Shown one piece after another: positions 12,901 through 42,700 of a DNA stretch of 63,838 nt. Position 1 is the first letter of the stretch. Each line of letters opens with the position of its first letter. The notes below the pieces were generated by a model that had not been told where the DNA came from, made no database searches, and saw nothing but the letters and a program-made list of their open reading frames with translations. The DNA lies in assembly GCF_000002075.1 (NCBI RefSeq), contig NW_004797281.1, positions 365,845-429,682 of the forward strand, given 5' to 3'. The stretch is from Aplysia californica. Its lineage: Eukaryota. The position numbers and the translations under genes are program-made.

Positions 12901-15900
12901 CATTCCCATCGTCACAAACCCAATGTCATTAGCAGTTTAAAAAAAAATATTATAGTTGAAATCATCCATGACAGCCACGAGAGAAGTGATTATCTTAGAC
13001 AGTTTTAGTAACAGTTTTACGGCACTAGCAACACAATAAGGTCATGTAAGTGCCGAAGATTAGAGGTGTAACAAGGGAGTAACAAACACAAAAAAGAATG
13101 AGGGGAGATAAAGAAGATAGATGTTAGATAGGAAAGAAGAAGCAAACCACACCAGAGCACCCGCCAACCACCCACAAACTTAGGTTAGCAGCCACAAATA
13201 GAAAACAATGATGAATATTCACATTATCATCTTAAAGAGTATATAAATCAATTGTAAGAAGCACTGCAACTTCACAACAACAATTTGAGTTTGAGTTAAG
13301 AGAAACACATCGACACATAATGGTCATATTATAGTGCAGGGAGGAAGCAAAACAGATAGACAGAAACAACAGAGGGAAAGAAAAGAATCAGGACCAACCA
13401 GTGACACCCTCCAACCACCTGCCTTCACAGTAACACATAAATTATGAGACACCGTGGTGAAATCTGAAAAATTTTTAGGTAGAGTATAACGGCACTTGCA
13501 ATACAATAGCATCATATTAGTGCTGAAGATTAGAGGTGTTCCAAGAGAGTAAAAAGCACAAAAGAGAAGGAGAGGTCAGGATGATAGATGTTCGCTAGGA
13601 AAGGAGCAAACCACACCAGAGCAGCCGCCAACCACCCGTGTGGTGAAATCAGGAGCTCGTCAAAATAATGAAATCGAAGATATCAGCATTTTCACACCGG
13701 TTGGGCAATTTTTATCAAATTTATGTTTTTGCGCCCAACACCTTTTATGTCTATTCAAAAACACATTTCCGGGTGTACTTTACAGAAAAACACTAGTTAA
13801 AGGCACAAAAAGTTAAATCTTTCAGTTTCCAAGGACTCTCAAGCTACAGAGGTCACCAAACTTTGGCGGCCATTTTCTTGCTAATTTTTCCTCTGAAACC
13901 AGGCAACCCCTACCTCCTTCAATAGTAAATATCTCAACTTGTACTCAAGATAGATGGCCTGTTTTTTTTCATCAAAAGATAGATGACTGAACAAGCTTTA
14001 AGATGATACCAATAACTCCACATGCCCAAAAATTGACAAGCATCTGATTCCACCAAGTCGTGACACAATGTACTTGTTTGACTGTGTGAAAGAAAAACTA
14101 GTGCAGAGTGTACCTGTGATCTAGGAAGCTGTACACCATTTTGAGGTAGTTCATCGGGGGCTGGTTGGCTCCGGAAGTCAAGGTGTGGAAGTAAACCAGG
14201 ACAAAGTCGGTCTCCACCACCGGGTCCATCACACGGATGAGATACAGGAGAACCTAAGAGAAGATAAAAGACATGTTTAGTTTTCGTAAGAGTTTTACGG
14301 CACTTGCAACACAAATAAGGTCATATAAGTGCCGAAGATTAGAAGTGTTACAAGAGAGTAACAAACACAAAAAAGGAGGGGAGATAGAGAAGATAGATTT
14401 TGTTATTAAGGAAAGAAGGAGCAAACCACACCAGAGCACCCCCCAACCACCCATGAAGATAAGAAAAGAAAATACAAGATAAGATTAGAGAATAAAAGAT
14501 AAGATATGGTAAGATACATAAGACATGGTAAGATTCAATATGATAAGATGAGATAAGATAAGAAAGGATGGAATTTCCTTTATAGTGAGCTTGACTATGA
14601 AAACCCCCCCAGATCACTGACATTAAGTTGTAGCCTCGTTTCCATTTCTATTCCTATTCAGGAGAATGTGTAGATAAGTGTGTAAAAAGAAGATAGAAAT
14701 GTTGTTGTTTTTGTTTAAGTAGAGGTTTTACGGCGCTCACAACTGCAAAAGGTCATATGAGCGCCAAGGGGAGGATGTCAACAGAGAAGTCCTTACAGGG
14801 AATCAGACTTACTCTGCTCACCTCTCTCGCTTCAACAGCACAAAGTCTGCTTTGACTATCAAGGTACCCCGGAAATAGCGGGTCACAAGAGTGTGACAAA
14901 CATACAAAAGAAGTAGAGGAAAATGAAAATAGTAAGGATTAGGAGAAAAAAAAGCAGCAGTTCCCTGTTGTAGTTCAGGCACAGTAATGAGCATGACATT
15001 GCTGGATCAGCCCATTTACAATTGTACCATGCATTAGAATGAGAAATGTTCCCCCTGTGGGAATGGCCTAAAGACACTTCAGTCAGTAGCACTGCCCCAG
15101 GGGGTGAAGATAGAATTTTAGAAACGAAACCATAATTCCAATCATTAATGACATGGAACACAAGCATTACCTTGTAGATATACAAAAAAGAAGACAGAAC
15201 TAACAACCCAAAAAAAAAATCTTAATTCCAATTAAGAATGACAGGGCACATGCAGCATAGTTATTTACCTTTTCTGGGTCAGCAGTCTGAGCAGGGTAAT
15301 TTTTACCGACAAACACAACAATAGGACGGCCAAAGTGATCCACTCCGGTACGGTACAAACAATGGTAGGCAGCCACATCTGTGAGATCTTCCGACTTAGC
15401 CCGCTGGAGTAACCTGTCGTACCTGCCAACAGTTTCGGAATCATCTTTCCATAAAACAATTTGCCTGAATAAAGTTTATTCTGCAGTTGTAACTGTACAT
15501 ATTTTTACATTGTCATCGACACACTTTAGATTACAAAGTGGTTTGCATAAACACACAATGGAGAAGGTTCTACAATTTTCACAATATTCAGACAGTAAAA
15601 CAATGATAAAAAGCTTTCATATATTCACTTTGTTTTCCAGATCTGACTTTCAAATGTTAAAGTGGGACCAGTAATTAACTTCAAAACAAATTGTTGTGGT
15701 CACACTGAAAATCCTTCAGAATTTCAACTAATGACAGTACCTGATGCAAAGTATAGCCAGTGTTACTCAGATTCGTAAAATTGCATTGAAAATGCAGACA
15801 CACAATAATACAAAACAATACTTTTTAGTTTTAGTAGAGTTTTTACAGCGCTCGCAACTGCATAAGGTCATATGAGCACCAAGGGGTGGATGTCAACAGA

Positions 15901-18900
15901 GAAGTCCATACAGGGAATCTGGCTTACTCTGCTCACCTCTCTAGCCTCAACAGCACAAAGTCTGCTTCGACTATCAAGGCACTCCGCAAATAGTGGGTCA
16001 CAAGAGTGTGACAAACATACAAAAGAAGTAGATGACAAATGACGATAGTAAGGATTAGGAAAGAAAAAGCAGCAGTCCCTGTTGCAGTTCAGGCACAGTT
16101 ATGAGCATGACATTGATGAATCAGCCCATTTACAATTCTACTGAGCATAAGAACATGTTAATGACCGCCTTTGGGAATGGCCTAAAGACACTCCAGTCAG
16201 TAGCATCGCTCCGCGGGGTGAAACAATACTTTTTAAAAAAACCCCAACTAAACTATTTGCTATCCCGAGATATTCTAGCGATGTGAAAAACAAGCTATAG
16301 ACAAATAATTAAATTTATAGTAAGCCATTTACACATTTGTCATTTTCAATATAGGCCCACCTTCGACGAACTTCCAGCTTTTTTGCCTCTGCAGTGTTCT
16401 GCTGTGCCATATGGCGGGATTTCACTTTGTCAGGGTCTTCCTCCATGTTGGCAAAGGGATGGTGGCCGACGTCCAAGGCCATGGACTGAGCAAACTCTTT
16501 GTTCAGGTCGATGGTCTGCTCAAATTCTTCATCTGTAGCCTCTGTGCAGATTGAAGAAACAGAATCCGAGTAAGTGTATGGGTTTCAAGCCCTGATCAAC
16601 AATATTAGGTTATTTAATGAGCGAGACCTTCGAATTCAATGTCCCTCTCCAACAGGACAAAGCAAAATGGGTTGAAAGTCTTGAAAAACTTGAGATGACC
16701 CGGGTTAAAAAAACGTCCAGTATGGGGTTCGAACCAGGACCATCTGCTCTGTAGTCCAGTGTGATACCAATTGAACGCCCAAAAATTCCAAATAAGTAAA
16801 CGACATATGTAGCAATGATGAGTTTTTGGCGTACAGTACAAATGATTATCTTGGACAGGAGGCCGTTAAAGATTGTACATACTAGAATAGCTTCCTCTTA
16901 AGCTTGAGAACTGCACATAATCTTTCCATACACAATGTCGGAGCATTGGAAGGTTACATGATACAGAAGCTATGCTCTGCTTCTTTCTTTTCCCTCGATC
17001 ACTCTTTTACTATACTTGTCTTTTTTTGTGTGTGCACAATCTACACTGTGCCGGTACTCTACGTCTCAAATGAAAGAATGCTTAAACTATTTTCACTTTT
17101 CTCCAATTTCATTTCTATTATTATTTTAAAAAAGTAAATTTATTAATGATAGATTTTCAGAGAATTCAAAGTTTCTTCACATTGTAAACAGGACAGACAG
17201 ACAGATACAGATACACATGAAAGCACATGCACACACGTACACACACATACTTAATGCAGCAAAGGTAGGCTTGTCCAAGATTCTAATCTGACGCTCTTTA
17301 ATCACAGGTTCACCGTCTTCGTTTCCAATATCACTGGGCAGATGGTCAAGAGCTTCGTCTTCTTCACTAGAATTCCTTGGGAAGTACAATGGAAGAATTT
17401 TTCTATACACTTCCTGAAAATGAAAAAAGTCAAGAGTGAGTATTTTAAAATACTTGCTCCAGTATAAAGATAATACAGGTAAAAAGAAGATAGTATACAT
17501 ACACAGATATGACTAGCTCTGAAATTACTTCAATCTTTTTATTTGAAATTGATTTATCAACATTTATTCAAGAAAAAAAAAATTGTCAAGGTTCAAACAT
17601 TTCATTTTTCAAAAGAAACTGACGTCTATAGAAGAATTCACTGTGACAAAAATTGTGGCGACAAAAGCTGTACAGAATGCCTTTGCACATAGATTCCCAT
17701 TCACTTGGGAAATAAAAAAAGCAAAAACCTTTGTGTACCGTAACTAATGCTGAACGAACAATTATATTGGAAGAATTCAGAACATTTTTTAAACGGGCTT
17801 GTTCAGTTTGATGAGTGACTGCGAAGCTCTGAAGTTATTTATAAATCTTTACTTACCAAATTTTCTTCTGTGCATGCAAAAACGATGAGATCAATAGCTT
17901 CGGGATGTTTTTCTAGGAAGCGTCTAACTGTACCTGAAAGGAATAAGAAGAAAAAGAGTACATAATAAGATTCAGAAGGACAAAATCCCCTCATGTTAAG
18001 AAATAGTGACATAATTCACCTTTGCGCTTGTGGCATACAGTATTCTTTTATTTTATGATTAAAGTCTAGTAAGCACATAGTAAAATTGGCAGAATGCAAA
18101 AATCTTTCCAAACGTACGAATTTCGCTAAGCACTCGTTTCAGATTAAAAAAACCCAACATATATAAGACCTGAAAATCTGTTTGCTATTTATATGCGTGT
18201 TACTGTTAGGTTAAGTTATATGCAAGCTAGACTATATATTTTTTTAAGTTGAAGTTTTTTTTAAAGTCCCCATCAACACACTTTGAATCAATTTAGCAGG
18301 CGGGCCTTGACCCTGCCAGTTAGGGCGAAAGCTGTGCTGAGAGGGAAATAACTTCCTAGCGGAAAGACAGAGATAATTGATACTAATTCTCCACACACAG
18401 GAATTAAACTAGGGTCTTCTGCATAGGGCTGTGAAGTACCTAACCGCTACATCACAGATGCCGGAACACAGCATTCATATAAAAACTTAATGCAATAGCT
18501 TGAACAAACTTTATCCAAATAAAAGCTAACTATTCTTAAAATATTCTGCAGTGTTCAACTCTAAGATTGTTTATTTCTCTGCATCTACCCATGCAGCAGA
18601 CTAGACTAGCACATACATAGCCAACAGGCACATAGAGAACAGATTTACTGGCCCTGTACTTTTTTTCTCATGCATGTATATTCTTTGTATTCAAAATATG
18701 AACATAGCGAAATTCGTTCATTACGGAAAGATATCTGTGTCCTGCTGATTTTGTTACACGTGTGCAACACTGTATGTTCAAGACAGCCATTAAAACAAAA
18801 AATCCAGTAACAATTTTGCAGACTTCAACTTTTTGTAACTCTAAATACCACTCCTCGACATCTGAAAATGTTTTGATTCCTGGAGGAAATACGACAACGC

Positions 18901-21900
18901 AGATCAAAGGCAGTGTACAGACTACAAAGATCACCAGACTTTGGAGACATTTTCTATTTTGCTCTCCTGACTGCTCAATCTAGTAGTTCAAAGGCAAGGA
19001 GGAGGGTATGGTAATCTATAGCTGCCAGCTTTACAAAACCGAAAAACGAAAGTAAGTTCAAATTAAAAAACAGAAACAATGAACTGTTACAAAAAAGTAG
19101 CACATTCTTACGTATTGCTATATGAGCTCCTTTCTCAGGGGGATAGTTTCTGCGGACTGTGTGGATTGCTCCAAGACCAAGGACTTTGATTTCTGTCTCT
19201 CTGAAAACACAAAAAAGGAAATATTACACAGAAACAGTTATAGGGTTGCTCTCTTACAAGGGGATTACTAAGTTGAACTTTGAGAAGGGAAAGGGGGGGG
19301 GGGGTGGGTAGGTGGTCTGGTGGTCAGATGGGGTCATTATAAAAAAGAAAAAAACACAAGGGGGGGGGGGGGGGGGAGAGAGTGAAGTGGTCATTTGTAT
19401 AGGTGATTGTTTTCAAAAAGTGGCTGTTAGAACAGGCGTGACCATAATTTATTTAGCTGGAAAAAAGATCCTTCTGTAAAGAACTTCAGGAATAATATTG
19501 AAGGTCATACAAAGTGCTCACAAAACCTTCGGCATAGCTGCCAAAAACTGACTCGATCCATGCAGCGGGTCAAGATGGTGGGTACTGGCTGAGTAAACCC
19601 CCCCCCCTCCTCCCCCAAAACCCTTAACACACACACTTTTCTGTATTCAATAGATTCAAGCTAGTCAAAGTAGACCTTCAGCTAAAGATCTCTCCAATTG
19701 ACTTATGAGCTACGTTCTTCTTCTTATTTGCATATCCTATCTCTTGTTGTTGTTGTTAGCGATCCAGTAGCATCTGAGCGTTAACTCTTCTGCATGATGC
19801 CATTCGGTAATAGTTGCATGTTTGTTCTAACTGTTGTCTTGAGGAGTAGAGGCAATTAGATGTGTGGGGTAGCTTGGGAAGAAAACATCCCCTTAAATCA
19901 GTTAGTTTTCTACAGAAAAACAGATGATGTTCCACTGTCTCTGAGGGGTAGTCACACAGTGGGCAGGCAGCAGACTGCTTTACTCCAATTCGGTTGAGAT
20001 GTTGGTTGAGGGGTACATGTTGTGTTCTAAGTTGGAAGATTATGGATTGATCTCCCCTCCTCAACTCATTGATTGGATCTTTGACCAGTGGTTTATTCAT
20101 GTGGCCATACATCCTCCTTCCTGTATCCTATCTCTTAACACTCCACCTACGCAGAACGAGCAACACTTATCCCCACAGACCAGGATACGGTAGCGGTACA
20201 AGCTATATCACACTGGCGCCGATCGGCGTCCCGTGGGGGCAAAGCGTTAAAAGTCAATACCTTTCCTTCAGCATAGGCAAGTTCATGAAGAACAGTACTA
20301 GAAAAGAGAGAAACCATATTTTACTAAAAGAAAACTGACTACAGTACTCAGATCTTCCAAAACATATTTAACACTTTTTTAACCTACAAGCTGACTGCTA
20401 TGCTACTGCCATTATGACAAAACCATTCCTGTTACTTACTTGCATATCTGTAGGATTGTCCTATAGCAGCTAAACAGAGCGCTCTCGGCGGCTGTAATAT
20501 ACTTAACGTTGTAGCGTGGACCCACTGAGTGGATGACATAACGTGCTGGTAGTTGATGGCCTTTGCTGAGTTTTGCTTCCCCAGTCTTGCACACTGAAAA
20601 GGTAAAATAAGGTAAGTTAAGATAAGATAAAATAAGATAAGGTAAGATGAGCTGAGATAACAGTTTATTGATCTCCGGAAAGAGAAATTTGTTGCAACAT
20701 GGTTATTACGTACATGCACACAAATATTCATCACCATACATATACATACACAAATGCAAACACACATAAATAGTCATCGGGTGAAATACAAAATAACAGA
20801 ATGGAAAAAAAAAAAGTATAAAACCTGGCAAGAGCTACCTTTTAGACCCATGTTCCATTTCAATAACCCGAGATCAAATCTATCTACATACTTGACTTAG
20901 ATATCCTGATATCTTTTCAAAAACCCTTTGATTTATGCATAGTTGCTTTGGTGGCCATGGGAACGAGAGCCGTTTTTAAAATAATCAAGACGGAAGATGT
21001 GCCACAGGCCTCTCTATTCGTTGACTAAATGTCTCCAAAATTGGTGAGAATGTGCCAGTGCTTATTGGATACTTTCGTACACTAGGATTTTGGGATATGT
21101 TTCAAAGTAATTAAAACTGTTATCTATGTGGGTAACAAAATCACTTGTAAATTAAGACTGTTGAAATTTTCTGATTTCATATAACGTGTGAAACTTTGCT
21201 TGCATGCAAACAAGGCTTCCTGAAAGTTTCATGCAAACAGGATAAAAAGTATAGGAGTAGTGGGTAAATAACTATCCAAAAAATGCTGTTTTGAGAAAAT
21301 AAAGCCATTAGTTGTAAAAATCTGACAAATGTTGTGCCATCTTCAAGTTTTCGAAGGTTGTAAACTTATATTTCACACCAGCTTTGTCATTTGACAATTC
21401 ATTACTAATATCTACAATCCCGTAGAACCTTTTTAATGTTAAAATGCCACTTAAGTACAAAGGAAAACATACATCCGCATTTGTTCTTTGCCAAGCAAAA
21501 CAAAACATGGTCACTAACCTCGTAAATCCTCTTGCACCTCTTTAAACAGCGCCTGTCCACCCTGTCTGTACAGCTCATCACTGAGTGAATTTCTATCATT
21601 CATGTGCTCATTGGTTGCATGGGTAATGGCATTAACATTCAGCTTTGTGATATTCCCAGACCTAAACAATAAAAAAAAATTCTCTATATAAACAAGTGCA
21701 AAATAACTCATTCAAAAAACAAAATATCGTTCTCTTCACTGCCGGAAGTTTTGAAGGGGAGGGGTTTACCTAATTTATATGGAAACCAAAATGTGGCCTA
21801 GAGGACTCGTGCTCTCCTCTCTTACCGAAGGTGATAGATTCAAATTCGGTCTAGACCTGCATGTCTAATTTTCTCTTCTTTTTCTGCATCTTCTGCTTTA

Positions 21901-22604
21901 ATTTTTTTGTTCTCACCTCCTTTTTCCTCATCTTCCTCCCCTTTCTTAAAAAAAGTCTCTCTTGCTTACTCAGAGAGGGATGGAGGTGGGGGGGAATGGA
22001 TAATGGAGGGTGGGGGGTGGCCTCCTGACTCCATGAAAGTTAGAATGTTATAAATGCATTAGAGAGGGCAGTGAAATTATTGCATTTAAATAACCATGTA
22101 CAGGCCTTATAGAACATATTATCATTGCGGTAGACAGTCAGCTACACTACGGTCAACTATACAGGACTTACAGTAGATCATATTTTCAAGGAAAAACATC
22201 AAGTGAACCTGAATGAAAAATTCACTGCGCCAACTTCTGATCCTTAGTTTGGTTTGTTAAAGAATGGGTCAGTTGATATCCAATGTGCAACAAGCATTAT
22301 ATAATTATCCCCCCACACTCCCCCAAATCATTTCAGATTTACACAAATCTGAAATAAGAACTATTTTTTGTTACAGAAGGAAAGTCTGACAGCTTCCACA
22401 ATTTTCCTTCTGAACTCACAAGAGACCACAAAATATAAACTCATACCAAAGAGCTATTTTTGCATTCAGGTCATTTCTCCAGGGGAAGGGGGATCCATCT
22501 TCTTCACCCACATTCTCTCTGGGTTGCTCCAGTAATTTTGTAAAGTTCCATCTTGTAATTGTGGACGGCTCAACAATTTCATCTCGAGTTCCCAGAGAGT
22601 CCAT
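9944..22604 (-). CDS. GDAP2: Ganglioside-induced differentiation-associated protein 2 homolog (macro domain + CRAL-TRIO/Sec14 domain), 12 coding exons, 501 aa
   Basis: join(22604-22447, 21661-21519, 20593-20440, 19200-19112, 17933-17857, 17413-17251, 16541-16361, 15422-15269, 14253-14114, 12819-12765, 11611-11468, 9991-9944) = 1506 nt. All introns are GT-AG with matching phases. Motifs CKTGEAKLSKGHQLPARYVIHSVGPRY..TAAESALFSCY, LPLYFPR, DIGNEDGEPVIKERQIRI, GVDHFGRPIVVFVG and YKKNLKQFYIVHPT are characteristic of GDAP2. Confidence 0.95.
10364..11190. mobile_element. pogo/Tigger-like (Tc1-mariner) non-autonomous element
   Basis: TA|CAGTCGAACCTG ... CAGGTTCGACTG|TA terminal inverted repeats; internal ACGGAAACCTGT sub-repeats. 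Confidence 0.9.
11191..11430. repeat. ~38-40 bp minisatellite (tttagcagtgagagagacaaacagaaa.gttttcta); further units at 10000-10100 and 10325-10363
   Basis: Visible tandem units in the last GDAP2 intron. Confidence 0.8.
11468..11611 (-). CDS. GDAP2: GDAP2 coding exon 11 (LATWFFTTFTASDIKPKV...EHDIQ)
   Basis: cag / GTCTGT. Confidence 0.92.
12765..12819 (-). CDS. GDAP2: GDAP2 coding exon 10 (YKKNLKQFYIVHPTWWSK)
   Basis: cag / GTAAGA. Confidence 0.92.
13639..13910. repeat. Interspersed repeat family GTGGTGAAATCAGG...; inverted copy at ~49870-50140
   Basis: Shared gtggtgaaatcagg(a/c)gctcgtcaaaataa(t/c)gaaatcg ... caggcaacc. Confidence 0.7.
14114..14253 (-). CDS. GDAP2: GDAP2 coding exon 9 (VLLYLIRVMDPVVETDFVLVYFHT...)
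   Basis: tag / GTACAC. Confidence 0.92.
14275..14453 (-). mobile_element. SINE family A (~175 bp); other copies at ~1560-1680, 3945-4040+4460-4540, 4860-4965, 13005-13175, 13475-13637, 34035-34190, 37560-37740, 42615-42795, 43220-43360, 44865-45045, 58945-59090 (minus) and 45192-45370, 48580-48715 (plus)
   Basis: Recurrent consensus agagttttacggcacttgcaacacaataaggtcatataagtgccgaagattagaggtgt...ggagcaaaccacaccagagcacccgccaaccaccc. Confidence 0.85.
15269..15422 (-). CDS. GDAP2: GDAP2 coding exon 8 (YDRLLQRAKSEDL...DPEK)
   Basis: start of CRAL-TRIO domain; cag / GTAAAT. Confidence 0.92.
15825..16222 (-). mobile_element. SINE family B (~400 bp); copies at ~14713-15110 and 31245-31590
   Basis: gcgctcgcaactgcataaggtcatatgagc..aagggg..gatgtcaacagagaagtcc...caacagcacaaagtctgct shared by three loci. 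Confidence 0.85.
16361..16541 (-). CDS. GDAP2: GDAP2 coding exon 7 (linker, ATDEEFEQ...HPFANMEEDPDK...)
   Basis: cag / GTGGGC, open frame and phase-consistent. Confidence 0.88.
17251..17413 (-). CDS. GDAP2: GDAP2 coding exon 6 (EVYRKILPLYFPR...PTFAAL)
   Basis: cag / GTATGT. Confidence 0.92.
17857..17933 (-). CDS. GDAP2: GDAP2 coding exon 5 (RTVRRFLEKHP...EENL)
   Basis: cag / GTAAGT. Confidence 0.9.
19112..19200 (-). CDS. GDAP2: GDAP2 coding exon 4 (ETEIKVLGLG...YPPEKGAHIAI)
   Basis: cag / GTAAGA, phase-consistent. Confidence 0.9.
19746..20123 (-). mobile_element. 5'-truncated non-LTR retrotransposon (I/Nimb/Ingi-like ORF2 C-terminus, CCHC knuckle) with (CAA)n tail
   Basis: ORF ...LRTQHVPLNQHLNRIG..CPLC...ETVEHHLFFC; 13-bp TSD tatcctatctctt at 19733-45 and 20124-36. 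Confidence 0.9.
20440..20593 (-). CDS. GDAP2: GDAP2 coding exon 3 (VCKTGEAK...ILQIC)
   Basis: macro core VIHSVGP; cag / GTAAGT. Confidence 0.93.
20600..21130 (-). mobile_element. Decayed LINE 3' end with AATAAA and (TCTTA)n tail
   Basis: FKTALVPMATK-like C-terminal remnant; tail abuts the acceptor of GDAP2 exon 3; related tails near 8090-8145 and 29780-29840. Confidence 0.4.
21519..21661 (-). CDS. GDAP2: GDAP2 coding exon 2 (WSGNITKLNVNAITHATNE...EDLR)
   Basis: N-terminal part of macro domain; tag acceptor, GTTAGT donor. Confidence 0.9.
22447..22604 (-). CDS. GDAP2: GDAP2 coding exon 1 (MDSLGTRDEIVEP...LNAKIAL)
   Basis: cag acceptor at 22610-12, CCAAAATG start context, donor GTATGA. Confidence 0.9.
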
Positions 22605-25259: not shown

Positions 25260-25954
25260 ACAAAAGATCACGAGACTTTCTTGAGCTATACAACTCGTTC
25301 TGTTGTCTGCTTTTATTCCACCATTTTGGCAAATAACAAGTCATGTGATACAGACAAGGGGCATAACGCTAAAGAAATTATGGAGAGCCTTTTCTGTCGG
25401 ATTGCCGACCTTCACAAGGAAGCTTCGGGGTTTTTAGTTTTTAGTCTTTAGTTTTTTTTACCATTGAAAAAGCAACTGACGAATAGTCTGTTCAATACTG
25501 CTCACTACTCATGTAATGCCACGGTCTACTTCATTGACAATTAAAATAAATTGTGATAAAAGCTTGGCTCGGAAGGAAAAGAATAAACATTAAATGGGTT
25601 AAGTAGCCACTGATACATTATTGTACTTTAAATAGGCCTATATACTACTAGATTCTATATAGTTTACTTTTCCCTCTTCCAATTTGACAAAAAGCGCCTT
25701 TATGTTGCAAACATAGTGGGGTGGGTTTAGCTACACACTGGGCCAACGACGCGCGTCGGTGGATTGAGGCCAAGCTCCGTGCCCCGCGCCATCCATCTCT
25801 TGACCAGAGGCAGGGGTCTCTTCTCGCAATGACAAGGCTATGAGTGCAAGAAGGTAACCCATTGTTAGTGTGGCTTAGTTTTACACTTTCAACATTATTC
25901 TAGCTTCGATTTCAGTCTCTTTTTGACTTGGTATAAATTCACGGAGTTGAAGTG
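25260..25954. promoter_or_regulatory. Probable GDAP2 non-coding first exon plus bidirectional promoter shared with the MADF gene
   Basis: The GDAP2 ATG exon begins at an acceptor, so an upstream exon is required. There is a minus-strand GTAAGG donor at 25259, a YY1-like CAAAATGG near 25325, and more CpG than in the neighbouring introns. The MADF ATG is about 0.6 kb away on the other strand. Confidence 0.5.
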
Positions 25955-26359
25955 ATGGGCTCGTGGTCAAAAGAAAGAACGTTGGAATTCATCAAATTGT
26001 ATAGATATCACAGATGTCTCTGGGATGTAAAAAGCAGAGATTACTCGAATAAAATCAAGAGGGAGAGAGCGTATGATGAGATGGTAGCATTTGTCAAATC
26101 GTTTTACCCCGATGCAAACAAGGACACTGTTGTTTGTAAAATCAGCAACCTTCGTAGCTCTTGGAGAAAAGAGCGAAAAAAGATCCTTTCTTCCCAGGTC
26201 TCTGGGGCGGGCTCTGAGGAGGAACATGTGCACACTCCAAGTCTGTTTTATTTCGACAGCCTGAAATTCATCGCTGACGCACAGTTTGCAAGAAAACGGG
26301 GAGAAAGCAGTAGACATGATGGTTTTAACAATACAAGCACGGCTCAGGAATCTGACAAG
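25955..26359 (+). CDS. MADF gene exon 1 (MADF DNA-binding domain)
   Basis: ORF-track protein 25952..26365; ATG at 25955, donor at 26360. Confidence 0.88.
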
Positions 26360-27782
26360 GTATAAAAAAAACCCTGTAAAAAAATAAACCAAAACCCAAA
26401 TACATGTACCCTTCCATCCTCAACTTCACGAGTAGCCACATACATAGTCTTTCTTTCTTCGTTGTTTCTTTCTATAGACTATACATCAAGTCTTCCTTTC
26501 ATATACCTGGCTTTCACTTTTCTTTATAACACCACCTTTCATTTCAAGTTTCTTTTCTATCTTTCTTTATTTCCTTTTTTCTTTTCGGAACTTTTAGCTT
26601 TCTCTCCCGAACATATGTTAAAGATACAAAACAGTGGTTTCATGCGATCTATCTCTAATTATCGTGAGGGATCACGAAGTCACAAACCACAGTAAATTCC
26701 CTTTGCTATGGAACGCTAGTTTTTGTTTGTCTGTATTGTGCTTGTTTGCTTGTTTAGGGGATTGCGCGGAGAAGGTCTCAAGTGAGGAGTGACTGAGCCC
26801 AGAGTTTCAGGAGGAGGGAGAAAATTTCAACTACTAAATATTTTTATAATAAAGTCCTTTAGAAACAAACAGGTCACATTGAAGGATAGAATCTGGATCG
26901 AGCTTCACTTTTAGCCCAATCAGGAAAGGAAGGGAGGTCTGTGTAAAAAAAATTCTTTATGAACAGGAGGAGTAAGAACAAGAAAAAAATATTTTTTCAG
27001 AGTGAAAATTGGGAATAGGGGTGAACTTATTTTATTATAATTGAAGTTTTATATGCCCCCATTGACACTGTTAAGTGTTTAGATAATTTCGGAAGCGGGT
27101 TGCTTTGACTCTATCTGCCAGGGCCAACCTGTCCTTGGTTGGAGGGATACAACGTCCTGTGGAAAGACAGATATTTGCGATAATAATTCTCCTTTTTCAG
27201 GATGGTAGCCACACAAAACAAATGATTGGATGAGAGGAAGAGAGAGAGAGAGAGAGAGAGANNNNNNNNNNNNNNNNNNNNNNNNNNNNNNNNNNNNNNN
27301 NNNNNNNNNNNNNNNNNNNNNNNNNNNNNNNNNNNNNNNNNNNNNNNNNNNNNNNNNNNNNNNNNNNNNNNNNNNNNNNNNNNNNNNNNNNNNNNNNNNN
27401 NNNNNNNNNNNNNNNNNNNNNNNNNNNNNNNNNNNNNNNNNNNNNNNNNNNNNNNNNNNNNNNNNNNNNNNNNNNNNNNNNNNNNNNNNNNNNNNNNNNN
27501 NNNNNNNNNNNNNNNNNNNNNNNNNNNNNNNNNNNNNNNNNNNNNNNNNNNNNNNNNNNNNNNNNNNNNNNNNNNNNNNNNNNNNNNNNNNNNNNNNNNN
27601 NNNNNNNNNNNNNNNNNNNNNNNNNNNNNNNNNNNNNNNNNNNNNNNNNNNNNNNNNNNNNNNNNNNNNNNNNNNNNNNNNNNNNNNNNNNNNNNNNNNN
27701 NNNNNNNNNNNNNNNNNNNNNNNNNNNNNNNNNNNNNNNNNNNNNNNNNNNNNNNNNNNNNNNNNNNNNNNNNNNNNNNNNN

Positions 27783-27827
<45 letters not shown>

Positions 27828-28544
27828 CCTGAGCCAGATAGTTGAGAATTTGCAGTTTATTATTTAGTACAGTGTATCCCATCGATTGCTCCTGTTGTGG
27901 AATTTGGGATAAATTTGCCAATGTGCTCCAGAACTTTTTACCATGGATTTTCTTTTTTTTTTTTCTTTTTGTCTGGTAACTGAAATACAAACAATTACGT
28001 GTGTTGTTTCATGCAGGAATTATTAACATTTAACAAGTGAGAAAGCCAATGATACATTACATATACTGTACATAACTTAACTTGTAACTCTTGTTTCTTT
28101 CATCAGGATGTCGATTCGAAAGAACACATTCTTTGTTCCCAAGGTTGTGATATAGACATGACTGATGATGACGAATGTTCCGACACTGACAGATCTACGC
28201 CCTCTGTGACTACAGCAGGAGCCCCCACAATACCTGTGTCTTGGAGACTGCAAAGGAACAAAGAGGAGCCTGTGGCCAAAAGGAAGAAGACATGTCAGAA
28301 GGACGAAATCCTTAGGAAAGTGTGTCAAAACTTGAATTCTCTGAGCTCCGAATCTCTCAGAAAGGATGAATTTGACTGTTTTGGACAAACGGTGGCCTAT
28401 GGTCTTCGCAACATGTCAAAGGAACAAGCAATTCATGCAAAAAAACGTATCTCCGATGTGCTCTATGAGGGGCAGTTGGGTACTCTCTCCACGGTCTTCA
28501 GTGTCTTCCCCACTACAGAGAAGTGTAATAACAGCAGTGCATGA
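25955..28544 (+). CDS. MADF (Myb/SANT-like, Adf-1 type) domain protein with C-terminal BESS-like motif, 2 exons, 280 aa; Harbinger-associated type
   Basis: join(25955-26359, 28107-28544); phase-0 intron AAG|GTATAA...catcag|GAT. MADF signature WSKERTLEFIKLYRYHRCLWDVKSRDYSNK..R..AY...KISNLRSSWRKE..K...SGAG....P.LFYFDSL.F; C-terminal DEFDCFGQTVAYGLRNM....AKKRISDVLYE. An extra exon inside the 27.26-27.78 kb gap cannot be excluded. Confidence 0.85.
28107..28544 (+). CDS. MADF gene exon 2 (acidic linker, basic KRKK NLS-like stretch, BESS-like motif)
   Basis: polypyrimidine tract + cag at 28104-06, in frame with ORF 28158..28544. Confidence 0.82.
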   Translation, partial: DVDSKEHILCSQGCDIDMTDDDECSDTDRSTPSVTTAGAPTIPVSWRLQRNKEEPVAKRKKTCQKDEILRKVCQNLNSLSSESLRKDEFDCFGQTVAYGLRNMSKEQAIHAKKRISDVLYEGQLGTLSTVFSVFPTTEKCNNSSA

Positions 28545-29358
28545 AAACACCTGCAGGCTACAAACTCACATCCCGAATCAGAAGTACAGTACCGACATCT
28601 GTGATGTAATTGTCAGGCTCTTTGCCATGCATGCAGAAGACACGAGTTTGATTCCCAAGCAAGTATCCTTGTCTATCAGCCGGAATGGATGTAATCGTAT
28701 GTTTTAAATACAAAGAATACGTACATTTGTACGGCAATAATGTCAATAGCACAGGGGAAGAAATAGCCCAACTGTTGCTAGATTGATAACAACAACAACA
28801 CAACGACATAGTTGACTTGGGTCAGGTCCTGGCCTCCCTTGTTCTTTTATAGAATGTTTGAGCTTTTCTATGGTGTAAATCACGTTAAATTTTCAGCTCA
28901 TCATGAAGACTTTTTGTGCAGACATTTGAGAGAAAATCAAAAGCTCTGTCTCTGGTGATGTATTCATAAATTATTTTTATAGTATCCTTAGTGTTGTCGA
29001 TCTAAATACAGTCTAGAATGTGCTTAATTCTTAAAAATTGGCTGTGTGATGAAATCTTTTTGTTTGTATGGATTTCGCTACTACACATCTTGTACGCTCG
29101 TACTCGTACATACAGAATACACACAATTACATGTGACATACATGTATGTATATTCTTTGAATAAGAAAATATTAATTTATGACCTAAAAATCTGTTTGCT
29201 TTGTCTGTGTTTCGCTACATGTGCATGATCGCTATGACTGTGTTTCGCTGAGTGTGCATTTTCGCTATGTGCGTGCTAGGCTGCATTAAATAAGTTATCT
29301 TCACCAAATGACTTTGAAAGATCTGCAACTGTCCCTTTTATGCAGTGTCTTGTCTTGC

Positions 29359-29361
<3 letters not shown>

Positions 29362-29425
<64 letters not shown>
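29362..29425. repeat. (TA)n microsatellite
   Basis: direct. Confidence 0.95.
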
Positions 29426-29427
<2 letters not shown>

Positions 29428-32400
29428 GTCTGTACTATCATTCTCCTGCACTCTATCTAAACTATTCTACGTGCCTCATGAAAGATTAGACTATCAGCTA
29501 GGAATGTAACTTTTCCATTGGATGCTCTGATAAAAATACATGTATGCGTGGTTATCAGTACGTAATCATGTTCCTCTGATAGCGTGTTAGTGTTACTTAC
29601 AGAAATCATCACCTACAGGGCCAATATGGTGTGATAATGTGGTCACTATCAGACCACTTGCACTTTTATTTTTGACTTTCCTTAGTCGCCCTACATTTGG
29701 ATGGTTTAGTGGCTTACTTTGATATATTATGTAGGCCCTAACTGTCACAGTTACATGTTTAAAGTGCCCCAGTAAGAATGATAAGAAGAAATAAGATATA
29801 TTTCATTGATATTTGCAATGAATGAGAAATTTGCTGCGGAGGGGTAAAAATGCACACATACACACACTCGTCGACACACTCTCACTCTTCTTTTCTCTCT
29901 CTCTATCTCACACACACTTACACACACGCACGCATGCACTACCGCACGCACACACACTAATGCACACACACACACACACACATAAAGATGCACTCATACA
30001 TACAGAAACAATTCTTGACCAAATATCCACAAGAGTAGCACTAAGAAGACAAAAGTGATTAGTGTACAAAATGTAGTACTGTACATGGGGTTATTAATTC
30101 TGTGGTTAAGCAATGCCAGTGACACAGTTTAAAGATGGGTAATAATCATATATTATTTGGGGTATTTAAACTTTTTTTTACAGGTTGCACTCCTTACAAA
30201 TTGATGTCCGATCAGAAAGACTAATGTTTTCTGCAGTTTGAGAATTTAAAATTAAAAAAAGTATTGTGTAAGTATTCAGAACTGTTCCAGAAGGGATTGC
30301 TTGATTAATTTGTGAATAGTGATATTTATTCTTCCATTTCCTCCATGAAATTCAAAGGGTTTATAAAATGTGTGCCAGTGTGTGTATGTTATATGTGTAT
30401 GTGTGTGTATGTGTATGTGTGTGTGGGTGTGTGAGTGAGTGTGTGAGAGAGAGAGGGAGAGAGAGAGAGAGAGAATACATGTAGCCTATAATAAAAAAAA
30501 AAAAATGCTATGTGTATGACTCTGAGTGATTTCCCTCTGGAGTATGTTGAAAACTTTTTGTGCATAAACTGTTTTGTAACTCCGTAGAGTGGTGTCTGCC
30601 TAAACTGAACATGGTTAATCTGAAAGAGCGGTTAACCATAAGAAAACAAAATCCCTTATTTTTTTTTCTTCCATTTGAGCAGCCTCCCTAAACTGAAAAA
30701 ATTATGGTGGACCCATGAATTTCGGTTTAAGTGGACTGTATATCTCAACACTCAGGTCATCCGTTGTTCAGAGCTACGAAAAGCCTATGGATTCTGTGGT
30801 CTCTTAAATTGCTTAGTCCCAAGAGCTACAGGCGCTGGTTCAAATCTCTGTACCTCGTACAAGCAATGACCATCATCAGTTTGTTTTTTTAGTTTCTTAA
30901 TGAATGTCTGGTTTGTTTTGTTAAGGTTTTGTTTTTTGTTGTTTTCCAGATTTTTAAAGATGTAAAATTAAATAAAAATTAAAGAGAATGTTTTTTAAAT
31001 TTCTAATTATTCCTATCCTCTTTGTTCATGTCAGCAACTTCTTGTTGGTGATGGTATTTGTAGCTGAAGAAGCAGTACGCGTTGTAATTATTAGTTGCAG
31101 TAGATAGTGGTAGTATGAACAGCAATACATATATAGTTTAGTAGTGGCACAGTTGTATGACCTTATTGTGTTGCAAGTGGTGTAAAACACTTACTAAAAA
31201 AACCTAAAACAAAGCATTGTAGTTGTAGCAGTAATACATGTTCAGTTTAGTTTTTGTAAGGTTTTACAGTGCTCGCAACTGTATATGGTCAAATGAGCCC
31301 CAGGGGGTGGATGTCACCAGAGAAGTCCAAACGGGGAATCAGGCTTACTCTGCTCACCTCTCTAGCCTCAACAGCACAAAGTCTGCTTTTACAAAAGTAG
31401 AGGAAAAATGATGATAGCAAGGATGATGAAAAAAAGCAGCTGGTCCCCCTTTGTTGTTCCGGCACAATACAGTATGAGCATGGCATTGATAAATCAGCCC
31501 ATTTACAATTCTACTGAGCAAAAGAACTTGTTAATATCCCCCCCCCCCCCCTTTGACCTAAAGACACTTCCGTCGGTAGCACTGCCCTGTTTGGAGGGGG
31601 GTATCTGGGTTCTTGGAGAAACTGTTTTGTTGAGTACAGTGGTGTACACTGAAGTCTATTTCAACTAAACACGGTTAATCTGAAAACAGCAGTGAACTGA
31701 AAGAAAATATATAATTCTTTTTTTTCCCCTCTTCTATTTGAGCAACCTCTCTAAACAGAAAACCAGACTAAACCCAAGAAAAATCAAGTGGTCTGGCAAA
31801 TTTCCAGTAAAGCGAGCTTTGACACTTTGACGATGTAACTATTGTAATCAAGTCAGCTAAGGTGGCCCTGATACTACTGATAGGCAGAGGCAAAACCCTG
31901 TTACATGCAGAAGGCATGAGTTCCATTCCTCATTGAGGAAGTCATTTTATCAAGTTGCGTTTACATAGGTTAACTCCATTTGGATGCTGGTGTGCTGTAT
32001 CCCACCTAAACACCCAAGAGGCCCTGACCAGTGAGTGACTGTGACAGGTACGGGCACAGCTCAATCTCACTTACCAGTGTCTCTTGCTAACTACCTGTCT
32101 CATTGAGTTAGATCTAACTCTCCACTTTAAAAAAATAAAGTAAACAAACCACACTCAAATAAGTTTAAGCAAACAAGTTCTCATGTCTGTCCAGCCACAT
32201 ATAAACAAATAAATATTTATTGGCCTCACGAATATATACCTATACTAGCTCACAAAGTCATAAGTCCATACAGACAATACAATACAGAAACTACAACAAA
32301 AGAGAAACCTGTGAAGACATTGCAATCATACAATCTATCAGTTGTCATAGGAAAAACCCCAAGGCTAGTTCTGTAGAAAAGGAAAAGAATAAGGCCACCT

Positions 32401-36701: not shown

Positions 36702-39700
36702 CTGTGGGGAGGAGAGAAGGTGTGGACATCAATAAAATAAGTGCATGTNNNNNNNNNNNNNNNNNNNNNNNNNNNNNNNNNNNNNNNNNNNNNNNNNNNN
36801 NNNNNNNNNNNNNNNNNNNNNNNNNNNNNNNNNNNNNNNNNNNNNNNNNNNNNNNNNNNNNNNNNNNNNNNNNNNNNNNNNNNNNNNNNNNNNNNNNNNN
36901 NNNNNTACAGACAAAGAGACAGAGAACAGGGGGCTACAGGGGATAGGAGGGGGAGGACTGGAGATGGGAATGGGATGGGGAGGGACAAGAGGGGGGAGTG
37001 ATGGTGTGAGAAAGAGGGGAGTGGTAGTGTAGGAGAAAGGGGGGGGGCAAAAGTAAACTACCATAAATCTTTTCCCAGCTGCAGAACAGAGACAACATAG
37101 AGTAGCGAGTTGTGCAAAAGTCTGTGGAATCAAATATCTGGTAGGCAAAACTGGATCTTGCAGTAGGCCCTACAGTACATTACCGTGCAAAAAAGACAAG
37201 CGTCTCCTAATACGTAAAGAAATTGCAGCAAAAGGAGGAAGCTGAAAAGGGGATAAAAAAAAAAAAATGTGGACATTGTAGTTAACATGGCATTGCACCA
37301 AGCTTTTTGTCAACATTTTTGTAAGATGACAAAGAAACATCTTGAGCCACCACAAGTTACTTCCCTTCACTGGCCTTCTTGCGCTATGGCTCTTTTATGA
37401 CAGATATCACTTTCACTTTATGTTTAAAAAATGCTCAAGTTAATCCCACCCTGCATCATGTTAACCAGTTTTTTGTAAACCCCCTCAGGGACACCCAACA
37501 TTAGAACTTCAGATTACATAACAATGAACACATTTCCAGTTTTACACTCTTCTTCTGTTTAGTTTGTGTTTTAGTAAGAGTTTTACAGCACTTTCAATAC
37601 AATAAGGTCGTGTATAAGTGCCCAAGATTAGAGGCATTACAAGAGCGTATCAAACACAAAAAAGAAGGAGGAGAGATCAAGAAGATAAATATTTGAAAGA
37701 AAAGAAGGAGCAAACCACACCAGAGCAACCGCCAACCACCAGCGCTACACTCTTCATTACAAAAAATATAACCAGAAGTCAATGTCATCAATTGTTGCTC
37801 GTAATCATGATACTTGTCTAGTGCACATGACAAAAACCAAATCAAATCTACGACAAGTGGGAATGGTTTTGGTGCAGTGTATGTTAGAAGGCTCTGAAAT
37901 TCCCGACTGCCAAATCCAGTGCAGTCCCCGGAAATTTGGGACAGTTGGCATGTGTGCCGCATTATTCAGACCCTAATGTATGCGTGTACATCCAACAAAG
38001 TGCTTCCTTAGAATTAAAAAGCTCTATCTGCTCAATACCTAGTTTTGAGAAATTTGACATTAAAAATGTGGAGTTTCACAATATTTCAAGCTTTTTCTAA
38101 AGTAATTCTTTGAATATCTTGATAATGACAGAATAGTCTTATGATTTTGATAGAGCAGATAAGGCATTTGATTTCTCATTTCCTGGTCTTAGTAGCTTTA
38201 AACAGCCAAAAATATCAGACAGAACTTTGTAATTCTGAGGTAGCGGAATGCCTCACAGAGAGATTATTGATACTTACGTTACTTTAGACGCAGAACAAAT
38301 GCTATAAAATTATATCATTGATATCAAATTTACCTTTGTGTTTGGACTGTACTTTTCAAAGATTTCCATCATGCTGTCATGGTACTTTGGGTGCCTCTCA
38401 TAGAGAGAGCCATCTATTGCTATCGTCACTTCAGGTCGACCGACATGATTCACAAGTACAGCCATGGCTGAGGAAATGATAAGCAACTTGGAATCGAAGA
38501 TGTTCATTGATAGGAAGAAAACTAAGTACAGGTTAGGTTTATTTGTTTGAATTTGAGTAAAGAGATGCACATATTTTTCCTTCCCCTTTCCTCTGCAAGG
38601 TCTCAAGAGAAATCAGCGGAACAATCTTTTACAAATGGAGCAACGACTTTTTAACTTCTAATTTCAAACATGGTCTGCATAGGTAAAAAACAGTCAGATT
38701 TGTTGGGTTTAAAAAAAATTATAAATAATAAACTAAAAAAAAATTTACAGGTTGAAGTTTTAATTCAAATAGCAGTCAAGTTAATGTTTTTAGGCATATC
38801 CTCATTTTCTAATTGTTCAAAGATGGTCTGCCGATCAGTTCAAGTTCTATCTTCTTCATCCTTATAGCACTGGACCCAATGAAATATATCTAGCCCTAAA
38901 TCTTTATTGACATCTGATCCCTTGTTCTGACCAGGTACTGGCTCCTTGCTCATGTCATCCTCTTCCTCTTCTTCCGTGTGAGGTGTTGAACAAACCCCCC
39001 CCCCCCCAAAAAAAAGAAGGAAATTAATCGCCGCACTGGCAGAAAAATGTCAGATTTTTTCATTCTTCTTACTCTGACAAGCGCCCAATTTCACCATCAC
39101 AATGTCACACATGTCTCAAATAAAAAAATACTGTGTCTTACCAGCTGCAATAGTGTGAGCTGCTCTTCGGGACATGAAGTCACACACTTCCCGCACAATA
39201 GCAACATCCTTGTCTGTCGCAATTGAGTCCAGCCCAAATTCCTCCAGGACTTTTTTCGTCCTTGTAGTTGTCTGACCTTCGTCACTGAGGGCAAAAAGAT
39301 CTTACTCAGGCAATGGCTCTCGAAACCTCTCCTGCATGCAGTGCTGAAGTTCAGTTATCCCTACTAGTACTTAGAAAAAAACAAATTCTGAGACAGGAAT
39401 GTTGTTTTGTATGTGTATTACTATGTACTTCTTTTCTTTTCTATTTTTTATTTTATTTCAATATTTAATGTCAAGACAAATTTTGCGTTGTTCCTATAAG
39501 ACAATGATAATTGAATGCTTTATTCAAGTAGACATATATGGAGAGAGTACAGGTTATAATTTATAATAACAGTTGCATTTATTTAGCGCACATCCATGCG
39601 CCACAGGAAGCATAGGCCTAAGGTGCAAGCAGCAACTTAAGCGCTCAAATGCTAACAAACTGATAAGATCTGTCGCCATTTATAGCAGGCACCCATTTCC

Positions 39701-42700
39701 ACCTGAGTGAAGTGAGGAAAATTTGTGCCAAGTGCTTTCCTAAAGGACCCGACTTTTGGTCCTATAGCCTAACCACTAAATGAGTTAAGGAGGGGAGATC
39801 AATCCATAATCTTCCAACTTAGAACACAACATGTACCCCTCAACCAACATCTCAACCGAATTGGAGTAAAGCAGTCTGCTGCCTGCTCACTATGTGACTA
39901 CCCCTCAGAGACAGTGAAACATCATCTGTTCTTCTGTAGAAAACTAACTGATTTAAGGGGATGTTTTCTTCCCAAGCTACCCCACACATCTAATTGCCTC
40001 TACTCCTCAAGACAACAATTAGAACAAACATGCAACTATTACCGAATGGCATCATGCAGAAGAGTGAACGCTCAGATGCTACTGGATCGCTAACAACAAC
40101 AACAACAACAGCCTAACCACTAGACCACAGACACCACAATTCTAATAATAAAAAGTTTTATTCCTCTGACACTTTGTGATGACCCACCAAGATCATTATT
40201 CTTTTTGCAAGACCTAGGGGGTGGGTGGAAGAAAGCAGAGGATTTTCAATTCAAATGTGAAATCGGTCCTGTTGTATGGATCTGAGACATGGAACGCATT
40301 TCAGACTTGAAGAGGATCCAGGTTTTCTTGAACAATTATCTAAGAAAGTTACTGAGGATCAGATGGCCAAACAAGGTAACCAACAAGGAAGTGTTAAGGA
40401 AAACAAGACAGATCCCAGTCAGAGATGAGGTAGGAAGAAGGCAGTGGCAATGGATTGGATAAAAAATACCCTCAGGAAGTCAGGTAGCTGCATAACAAAG
40501 AAAGTGTTGGATTGGAATCCACAAAGTAAAAGACCAAGGGGAAGACTGCATGGAACCTGGAGAATAATCACAGAAATTGATGTACAGAAAAATGGGAAGA
40601 CATGGAATAACATCAAGAGGCTAGCCCAGGATAGAAAAAGGTGGAAAGTGTTGGTTTGTGGCCTATACCCAGGTGCAGGGTGAGAAAGGCAATGATGATG
40701 AGGGGTGGGTGGGAGCATGATACCAACAAGACCTACTTGTTTTTTTTTTGTGCAAGACCTAGGGGTGGGTGGGGGCACGATACTGAAAAGAACGACTTGT
40801 GTACTTGCCTCTCTATAGCGGTGATGTGGGATGCAGTCAGCGCCCAGCGTCTTTCCACTAGATCCACTTGCTTTCCCCCAAACAGAACACCCTCTTGGAC
40901 CAGCTGAACAAGAACCAGACGGGCCAGCTCTCCGAGGTACAAGCCAGCCACAGACTTTTCAAACCTGTAGTCGACCAAAATAATTGAAGGATATATAGGG
41001 GAAAAAACAAGGGATGTCACTTTCTGGTATTTTGAGAAAAACAAAAATGAAATAACGCTTGACAGCCCAAGTGGCATCCATAGTTTAATTTATTTTCTAA
41101 GCCTGTTATCGGGCAGCTCATCAAGTTTTAGCCCTGGACTCTTATAAAGGTCAGAAAATGTGCCTAAACACTTTCCAACTCATGTCACAACTCAAATAAT
41201 CCAAAACCTGACATCTCCTGTCTTTCCCCTTCAATTATTTTGTTTGTTAGAGAAACAGAAGCACAAAAAAGTCCAAAGTTGTAATCTAGTGCAAAGAAAA
41301 ACTGAAACAAAGATGAAAAAAAGAGAAGTAGGACCTGCCAGTGGCTTCCTCTAACTACCCAAAATCAAAATTAGGAAAAAAAGCAACATATCAGTGTATT
41401 GTACCAGATTTTTCTTCTTCTTCTTCTGCATTCCTCTGCTTGAGCTCAGGGAGTAACGGTCTGTGTGATCTTCATCTCACAGTGCAGTTGGTTTTGACGA
41501 GCACAAGCATACATATTTTTGTATTTTATTACACAAAAATGGATTTTCATATTCAGACCTTCCAAAATGTATTAGATACCTTTTTTTAAAGTATTGGTTA
41601 GAAGCTATGAATATGATACTATTACTGCTTCTCTTTCAAAACAACAAAGAGCAAAAAAAAAGATGATTATAATGATTTTTTAAGAAGAGAAACACAATAG
41701 ATTCCTAAATAAATATAGTAAAACCTGCCCAAACAGCCAACTGTATAAGACATCACTTGTAGAAACTAGCGGCTACTTCTCATTTTGTCCCCTACGTTTT
41801 TTTAAAAACAACATTTTAATGACTCTATGTAAGATGGCCACCTGTCTAGGACACCCACTTTTCTCCCTAACAATGTTGGCTGTCCTAGACAGTTTCGACT
41901 ACACTTGCCCTTGTATGAAAAAAGAATATTACATACGTAAATGAGCCAGGGTGGTTTGAGTGCTGGTCCAACTCTTTCTCGTACTTCGAGCGGCAGAAGT
42001 CTAAACAGCCGTTGTCTCCCGTGGAGCCACACTCCACATTCACAATAACCTGAGGACAAGAACAACAAACTACAGTCCAACTTGCTCTCACCGCCACCTG
42101 TCCAAGACAATTCTGGGGTTTTATTTTAAATGACAGTATATCCATTTTCGGAAAATGTTCACGAGAGCCAAAAATATCCAATTCACATCTTAGCCTCTCA
42201 ACAGCCAGTCACTTTGACTATCCTTAAAATACTTTTCCAGCCTTATTTATTCAGACATCGATACTAGACTAAGGCAGAAATGTGTGTCACGTTTCAAACT
42301 ATCATGAGGAATCGATGACTCAATTTCGTCGAAACCTGGACATACTAAAAAATAAAACTCCAGAATTAGCTGTATAAACCACCATTTCCCCCATCATCTC
42401 TTGTTTTTTTTTTTTTCAGAATATGTATATATTATATGTTATAATGGCAAAGTTCAAGATGTCTGCCTGTCTAAAACTGGCACAGTTCAAGATGTCTACC
42501 TGTCTAAAACAACCGTTTTTCTTCTGACAATAGGTGACCATCTCGGACAATTTTGATCGTATGACACACGCAACCACTTGCCAAGGGCACCAAGTCAAAC
42601 TATAGAGAACTTTTTTTTTCTGTTCTGTACAAGTTTTACGGCACTTGCAACATAATAAGGTCATATAAGTGCTGAAGAATAGATGTGTGTCAATAGAGTA

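Follow-up and report, generated by a model that had tools for sequence, protein, structure and literature searches.

A MADF gene of Aplysia californica, probably a retained accessory gene of PIF/Harbinger origin

Is the MADF gene LOC118477841 of Aplysia californica a host gene, and was it derived from a PIF/Harbinger transposon? The question arises from a stretch of 63,838 nucleotides (contig NW_004797281.1, positions 365,845 to 429,682; here called the window), for which an original prediction proposed that a MADF/BESS gene had been retained while its transposase partner decayed immediately downstream. Comparison with related loci in the same genome indicates that this intact gene, present in a single copy, descends from a PIF/Harbinger accessory gene and has probably been kept by selection as a host gene.

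The coding region starts at ATG 25955 on the plus strand and consists of two exons, 25955–26359 (135 codons) and 28107–28544 (145 codons plus the stop codon TGA at 28542–28544). They are separated by a phase-0 intron of 1747 nt (26360–28106), with a GT donor at 26360 and an AG acceptor ending at 28106; 521 nucleotides of the intron (27262–27782) are N. The joined exons encode 280 amino acids (aa) without internal stops, and the product is identical to XP_035826156.1 (uncharacterized LOC118477841 isoform X1, Aplysia californica). The start codon, splice sites, open frame, and RefSeq identity bear out the predicted intact, spliced gene. The MADF domain (PF10545) is found at residues 12–106 (E-value 5.6e-16). 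The second exon encodes an acidic linker, a basic KRKK patch (28278–28289) that is likely a nuclear localization signal, and three helices. For BESS (PF02944) the score is 11.8 bits against a Pfam cut-off of 21. The name MADF/BESS is appropriate for its first half, but the C-terminal helices are BESS-like rather than BESS.

The origin of the gene can be traced through its relatives. At least 105 matches to DDE_Tnp_4 and at least 96 other matches to the first exon were found in the genome, and 28 Aplysia loci were mapped, up to 10 kb each. MADF and transposase sequences occur together at 10 of these loci, and the BESS-like exon is also present at seven of the 10 (weakly at L071). At all seven complete loci, a piece of the transposase lies antisense between the MADF exon and the BESS-like exon; the catalytic exon of the transposase thus occupies the position of the window intron. 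Among the remaining three, two are compatible with the antisense position, their BESS-like exon being undetected, and L139 has both genes on the same strand. At L069, L080, L122, and L136, the N-terminal exon of the transposase lies past the BESS-like exon and close to the far end; in each of the three loci checked, this exon terminates with a phase-0 GT donor. The interleaved genes of L069 and L080 lie within terminal inverted repeats (TIRs), in ~5.1 kb. A phase-0 donor after the MADF domain, the same as in the window gene, is seen in L066, L067, L069, and L070. The nearest paralogs of the window protein (46–53% aa identity) include the MADF genes of the TIR-flanked elements L069, L080, L122, and L138. 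Taken together, the antisense transposase in the same intron, the shared donor phase, and the paralogs inside TIR-flanked elements make the Harbinger origin of the window gene well supported.

L069 (G000:C360:373649-378733) is a nearly complete 5.1-kb element with TIRs matching at 97% and an open MADF exon. Its transposase contains one stop and frame breaks, and the element serves as a reference for the family. Two other types of DDE_Tnp_4 sequences were observed. L036–L038 (G000:C309, C1092) are three almost identical open reading frames (ORFs) of 421–455 aa with what we take to be a THAP-like N-terminus; they represent a young element from a different group of the PHIS type. L049 (G000:C592:423079-423537) is an open stretch of 276 aa, unlike the element-type transposases, and is possibly a HARBI1-like host gene. 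The interleaved layout is not claimed as new, because nested layouts have been reported for insect PIF elements and because Repbase and the older PIF papers lay outside the literature search. Within the scope of that search, no description of it was found in the accessible parts of the literature, including PMC13668399, PMC9179366, PMC4482050, and PMC2213677.

The same relatives bear on another explanation, in which the window gene is a transcription factor of the MADF-BESS type that has long belonged to the host, has no recent transposon origin, and only happens to look like a Harbinger accessory gene. The window locus itself carries no transposon hallmark, and full-length relatives exist in sacoglossans, as such an origin would predict. 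However, its domain order, its intron position, and about 50% identity of the MADF domain are common to TIR-flanked, transposase-bearing elements, and a midpoint-rooted tree places it among the element copies. An old host factor of this kind is quite improbable.

If the gene came from such an element, what became of the transposase? The original prediction placed its C-terminus, convergent and frameshifted, directly 3' of the stop codon, on the basis of four peptides on the minus strand. All four are readable at 28580–28665, 28742–28770, 28785–28830, and 28880–28950, but their meaning is different. A DNA search with 28400–29350 found 40 other matches, concentrated on three short stretches. The first (28590–28690, plus strand) is a 3'-truncated, tRNA-like short interspersed element (SINE) with words that we take to be A-box and B-box like motifs; its similarity to other copies fades near 28690. 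Nucleotides 28590–28660 show 80–88% identity to all 13 fetched copies of the head type, and 5 mismatches in 67 nt (7.5%) to the majority of 12 copies, the best copy being 88% identical. Rfam and ARAGORN called no tRNA in it. Aplysia is described as containing SINEs with tRNA heads by the thousand, which differ from their consensus by about 10% (PMC4758252). The second stretch (28740–28810, plus strand), recognised by its match to copies of a long interspersed element (LINE), comprises ~70 nt from the 3' terminus of a non-LTR retrotransposon, with an (AAC)n tail. In longer LINE copies the ORF ends with the same residues as are encoded on the plus strand at 28740–28810, followed by (AAC)n; these copies also contain regions that are presumably RNase H-like and zinc-knuckle-like. 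The third (29177–29290, plus strand) is another dispersed repeat, then ATTAAA at 29285, a candidate poly(A) signal.

The peptide region 28580–28665 is thus the reverse strand of the multi-copy SINE head, and 28742–28770 and most of 28785–28830 are the reverse strand of the LINE 3' end and its tail. The runs of V and C in the claimed peptides are caused by the (AAC)n tail read backwards. The fourth region, 28880–28950, is unique DNA without transposase signal.

Frameshift-aware alignment gives the same answer. With eight catalytic-domain queries, each from a transposase of the Aplysia genome, the minus strand of 28545–29000 scores 32, below the median of 37 (95th percentile 44) for 120 random segments, while three true decayed transposase copies used as positive controls score 162, 347, and 715. 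Seven N-terminal queries give 35 on the same strand and interval (null median 31, 95th percentile 38, n = 150), in a test that overlooks old fossils because L066, L067, and L070 scored 35–38 and were missed. Outliers up to 96 occur in the nulls of these searches. In the readable part of the intron (score 40, n = 70; null median 38 and 95th percentile 45) and in 28545–30050 (36; null median 34) there is no transposase signal, and the search of the 5' and 3' flanks of the MADF gene found nothing. The sole nearby score above a null 95th percentile is 44, ending at ~30364 (95th percentile 41, maximum 49, n = 150), but it comes from one distant query over TG-rich DNA. When 1101 ORFs of the fetched loci were compared with the window by tblastn, no transposase match appeared 3' of the MADF gene.

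A transposase fossil at 28545–29000 is ruled out by these null-level scores and by the SINE and LINE identity of three peptides; no collinear transposase stands above the null. Nor is such a fossil expected there, because in the interleaved family the catalytic part lies in the MADF intron and only the N-terminal exon lies 3' of the gene. A convergent C-terminus right after the stop can hence be considered extremely improbable. What survives of the proposal is its general idea, a MADF partner kept after loss of the transposase, which the sister loci, the single copy, and the open frame support.

The same proposal pointed to a Harbinger-TIR-like word near 25730. The word is present at 25730–25746 on the plus strand, preceded by TTA, in a region (25560–25960) that is single copy. 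However, it has no partner in the window at up to 4 mismatches, and it differs from both types of TIRs of the sister elements. At one mismatch the genome contains 10 matches, including that of the window, against one for the reversed control; TWA precedes none of the other nine. The word also lies within the stretch covered by contigs of the sequencing runs X4, X5, and X13, probable RNA runs among them. Nothing supports it as a worn TIR remnant. Between 22000 and 32000 there is no long-range inverted repeat, and the TIR words of the family are absent from the locus except for one match with three mismatches at 24293.

The window locus therefore lacks the traits of an autonomous element, with no transposase in the readable sequence, no TIR pair with a 3-bp TWA duplication, and no similar copies. 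It has those of a retained accessory gene, namely homology to element MADF genes, a single copy, an intact frame, and no TIRs. The genome search found no second copy at the DNA level. The best other match to the first exon is 50% over 112 aa; the second exon has at least eight other matches at 36–44% aa identity, the best at 43–44%. Stops interrupt 78 of the 96 other first-exon matches, and the window frame is open. The copy number asked for by the original prediction is thus one, without near-identical TIR-flanked siblings, all counts of matches being lower bounds.

Relatives are also found outside Aplysia. GFO18513.1 of Plakobranchus ocellatus (280 aa, 51%) and GFS23677.1 of Elysia marginata (286 aa, 46%) are full-length, and these sacoglossan relatives align across the exon junction. 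A quick maximum-likelihood tree was built from 60 rows: 49 database proteins (taken from the 150 best matches and earlier searches), 3 partial ones, and 8 element copies. The window and sacoglossan proteins form a clade in it with a Shimodaira–Hasegawa-like approximate likelihood ratio test (SH-aLRT) value of 98, and none of the eight Aplysia element copies falls inside. A search of 12 of the 32 supplements of PMC8079154, made toward synteny, found no match. With the neighbouring GDAP2 protein as query, just two proteins came back, that of Aplysia and an unnamed one, and no sacoglossan GDAP2.

Is the gene transcribed? An upstream exon on the plus strand (25577–25853, GT donor at 25854) is covered by X5 contigs; its start at 25577 is inferred from 23 letters of contig overhang and may differ from the true 5' end. 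ATG 25840 in this exon opens a short isoform, RefSeq isoform X2 of 183 aa, and the N-terminal residues of XP_035826158.1 match those encoded by the exon. The short isoform uses an internal acceptor at 26259/26260 (exon piece 26260–26359, plus strand), so that nearly all of the MADF domain is skipped and the C-terminal region is retained. One of the X5 contigs connects 25851 with 26258 across GT..AG ends, the join implied by isoform X2, with 30 letters on its short side, one below the tool bar of 31. X4 contigs cover 25640–25844, 26129–26341, and 28543–28794. X4 and X5 are probable RNA runs, guessed as such; X4 contains a spliced GDAP2 contig. The junction 26359/28107, for which reads were sought, was not seen in the four runs examined, but it is supported by the sequence, the RefSeq model, and the homolog alignment. 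Expression of the gene looks low or restricted.

Two further observations concern the upstream exon. With a predicted acceptor at 25915/25916, the upstream ATG would open a frame of 17 codons ending in a TGA that overlaps the main ATG (25840–25957). This frame could limit translation if that acceptor, a splice absent from the reads, were used. At ~25770, an X4 contig has 27 gap letters, and X17 shows 17 loose letters ahead of 25773; an insertion polymorphism in the upstream exon is the likely cause.

These data have to be weighed against the view that the gene is a barely selected or unselected remnant. In this view it would come from a Harbinger subfamily also active in sacoglossans, as a derivative with deletions, its frame open by chance and its transcripts noise from the GDAP2 promoter region. 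Such a remnant is unlikely, but a number of observations favor it or otherwise count against a selected host gene. RNA cover is low and patchy. Besides the missing main junction, no contig of the four runs covers the second coding exon, and two poly(A) raw-read runs have depth 0 over 25757–26247, though a GDAP2 exon is barely covered in them as well (0–0.5). The sacoglossan clade contains broken or multi-copy members. Its Elysia crispata-like member seems to be split, with P0019 stopping after 100 aa and KAK3795288.1 being without MADF. P0133 is one of three near-identical truncated proteins that cluster together and lie on three contigs, a transposon-like pattern. Because further proteins of sacoglossans fall together with element copies from Aplysia in the quick tree, and element subfamilies are thus common to both, the cross-species clade is no proof of orthology; it may be an element subfamily of which a member was retained in Aplysia alone. 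Deleted TIR-flanked derivatives such as L138 do exist. Only 2 of the 60 family members show BESS at E ≤ 0.1, and the 521 N of the intron could conceal transposase DNA.

On the other side, the window locus has no TIRs, neither transposase exon, and no sibling at the DNA level, whereas the internally deleted L138 has kept its TIRs and a piece of transposase, and its MADF frame is disrupted. The SINE starts 45 nt after the stop, which in the sister layout places it inside the former element, and its divergence can be used for a simulation of neutral decay. Of 3000 runs at each level, 39 kept the frame of 843 nt open at 0.05 and 8 at 0.075 substitutions per site, with the assumptions, which also weaken the case for selection, of 0.08 indels per substitution and of SINE insertion after the element. 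An open frame by chance after 5–7.5% neutral change is therefore unlikely. A simulated transposase exon remained detectable to ~0.5 substitutions per site (12 runs per level). Retention by selection as a host gene thus continues to be the probable reading.

Two other loci belong to the same problem. LOC101861586 (L066, G000:C217:394635-398555) encodes the intact XP_012938663.1 of 267 aa, and its intron contains four collinear antisense pieces of transposase (L066 4500-6010) with stops and frame changes (E-values 1e-10 to 7e-4). No long-range inverted repeat or TIR was detected at L066. Here the intronic fossil is real, and this is a cleaner case of MADF retention than the window gene. The scenario of a retained MADF gene with a decayed transposase thus fails on the 3' side of the window gene but holds at LOC101861586. 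LOC101855043 (L070, G000:C475 from 508825) encodes an intact protein of 302 aa with MADF and BESS-like regions and groups with the L069 subfamily. There is no transposase match within the 10 kb fetched, and it is a third candidate for domestication.

What might the window protein do? The AlphaFold model, from an alignment of 60 rows, has a mean predicted local distance difference test (pLDDT) of 76 and a predicted template modelling score (pTM) of 0.50. It shows a helical N-terminal domain (block pLDDT 76–98 over residues 1–110), followed by a linker modelled as disordered and by three helices in the C-terminal part (residues 199–259). Foldseek found nothing in PDB at E ≤ 0.001; the weak rows include the DNA-binding domains of Sap1, GT-1, and Zeste. 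Atlas features matching at 0.90 lead to clusters in which 32–37% of members carry BESS. A two-copy model of residues 195–272 scores 0.51, against 0.00 for the best of three controls, with at least 84% of contacts in agreement among runs and pLDDT of at least 65. In a microbial benchmark, 21 of 30 homodimers but none of 23 monomers attain the mark used for this score; among eukaryotes the figures are 17 of 29 homodimers (7 of 16 in animals; 1 of 7 without an older solved relative) and 0 of 30 monomers. A pass may reflect memory of solved relatives. The model gives support, not proof, for self-association of the BESS-like C-terminus.

The source element presumably carried its transposase antisense in the MADF intron and beyond the last MADF exon. 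Because of this arrangement, decay or deletion of the transposase could leave the MADF frame untouched, and its loss would leave an ordinary-looking host gene. The copy would have been inserted head to head with GDAP2, with its promoter likely in the region between both genes. The activities likely to be retained are DNA binding by MADF, import into the nucleus by means of the KRKK patch, and self-pairing of the C-terminal helices. The 280-aa form would then be a dimeric regulator of chromatin or transcription, and the 183-aa isoform without MADF is predicted to weaken its action through dimers with poor DNA binding.

A wider scheme is possible, although doubtful at present. In a graded series, the TIR-flanked L069 would lead to LOC101861586 with its intronic fossil and then to the window gene without any trace, domesticated before the sacoglossan split and tuned by a dominant-negative isoform lacking MADF; the interleaved family would be a source of host transcription factors. 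If true, this would explain part of the expansion of MADF genes in Aplysia and show BESS-like domains to be element-borne.

The neighboring GDAP2 homolog (Macro and CRAL-TRIO domains; 9947–22604, minus strand) matches an Aplysia californica protein and lies head to head with the MADF gene. Exons of a hexokinase gene (38313–49361, minus strand) lie tail to tail with it. Two near-identical LINE 3' fragments, 19759–20127 in a GDAP2 intron (with a zf-RVT match) and 39773–40090 in a hexokinase intron, are related to the family of the tail at 28740–28810. At 59256–59705 on the minus strand, an open frame of 150 aa with ordinary composition and no Pfam match is probably an exon of another gene.

How does the window gene compare with known systems? 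That accessory genes of Harbinger elements have been domesticated is established for vertebrates, insects, and plants alike, and the window gene would be a further case of this phenomenon, not a new kind. Drosophila Adf-1, Dip3, and CP60 are MADF-BESS factors. The window protein shares with these an N-terminal MADF domain, an acidic linker, and a C-terminal helical motif predicted to self-associate, whereas its BESS is below the Pfam cut-off. The importance is modest: Aplysia is a model of neuroscience, and the simple route indicated is transposase loss inside an intron. LOC118477841, LOC101861586, and LOC101855043 can be named as candidates.

According to an Aplysia survey (PMC10027918), there are 41 MADF genes, and at least six domestications are predicted; the MADF genes were excluded, no transposase link being visible. 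The sister loci supply this link for the subfamily of the window gene. The role of the Myb-like protein within an element is to bind the TIRs and to bring the transposase into the nucleus (PMC9392472, PMC9710019). Insect pairs such as DPLG7-DPM7, APLG-APM, and LPLG2-LPM2 (PMC9710019) also include a PIF/Harbinger-derived MADF host gene without TIRs. There, the transposase is kept adjoining the MADF gene, side by side, whereas it is gone from the window locus, and the two genes of the source elements were interleaved. In the fish M. miiuy, ADF-1L (PMC11893794) is likewise a Harbinger-derived MADF gene near a host gene; for the window gene this neighbor is GDAP2. Other parallels are vertebrate NAIF1 and MSANTD1-4 (PMC9392472), which come from Harbinger Myb-like genes and are, like the window gene, single-copy and derived from the accessory gene alone, and of which MSANTD1, 3, and 4 have a similar length of 275–345 aa. 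Their case includes synteny and the ratio of nonsynonymous to synonymous substitutions (dN/dS); the window gene would have a separate origin in gastropods, with a BESS-like C-terminus.

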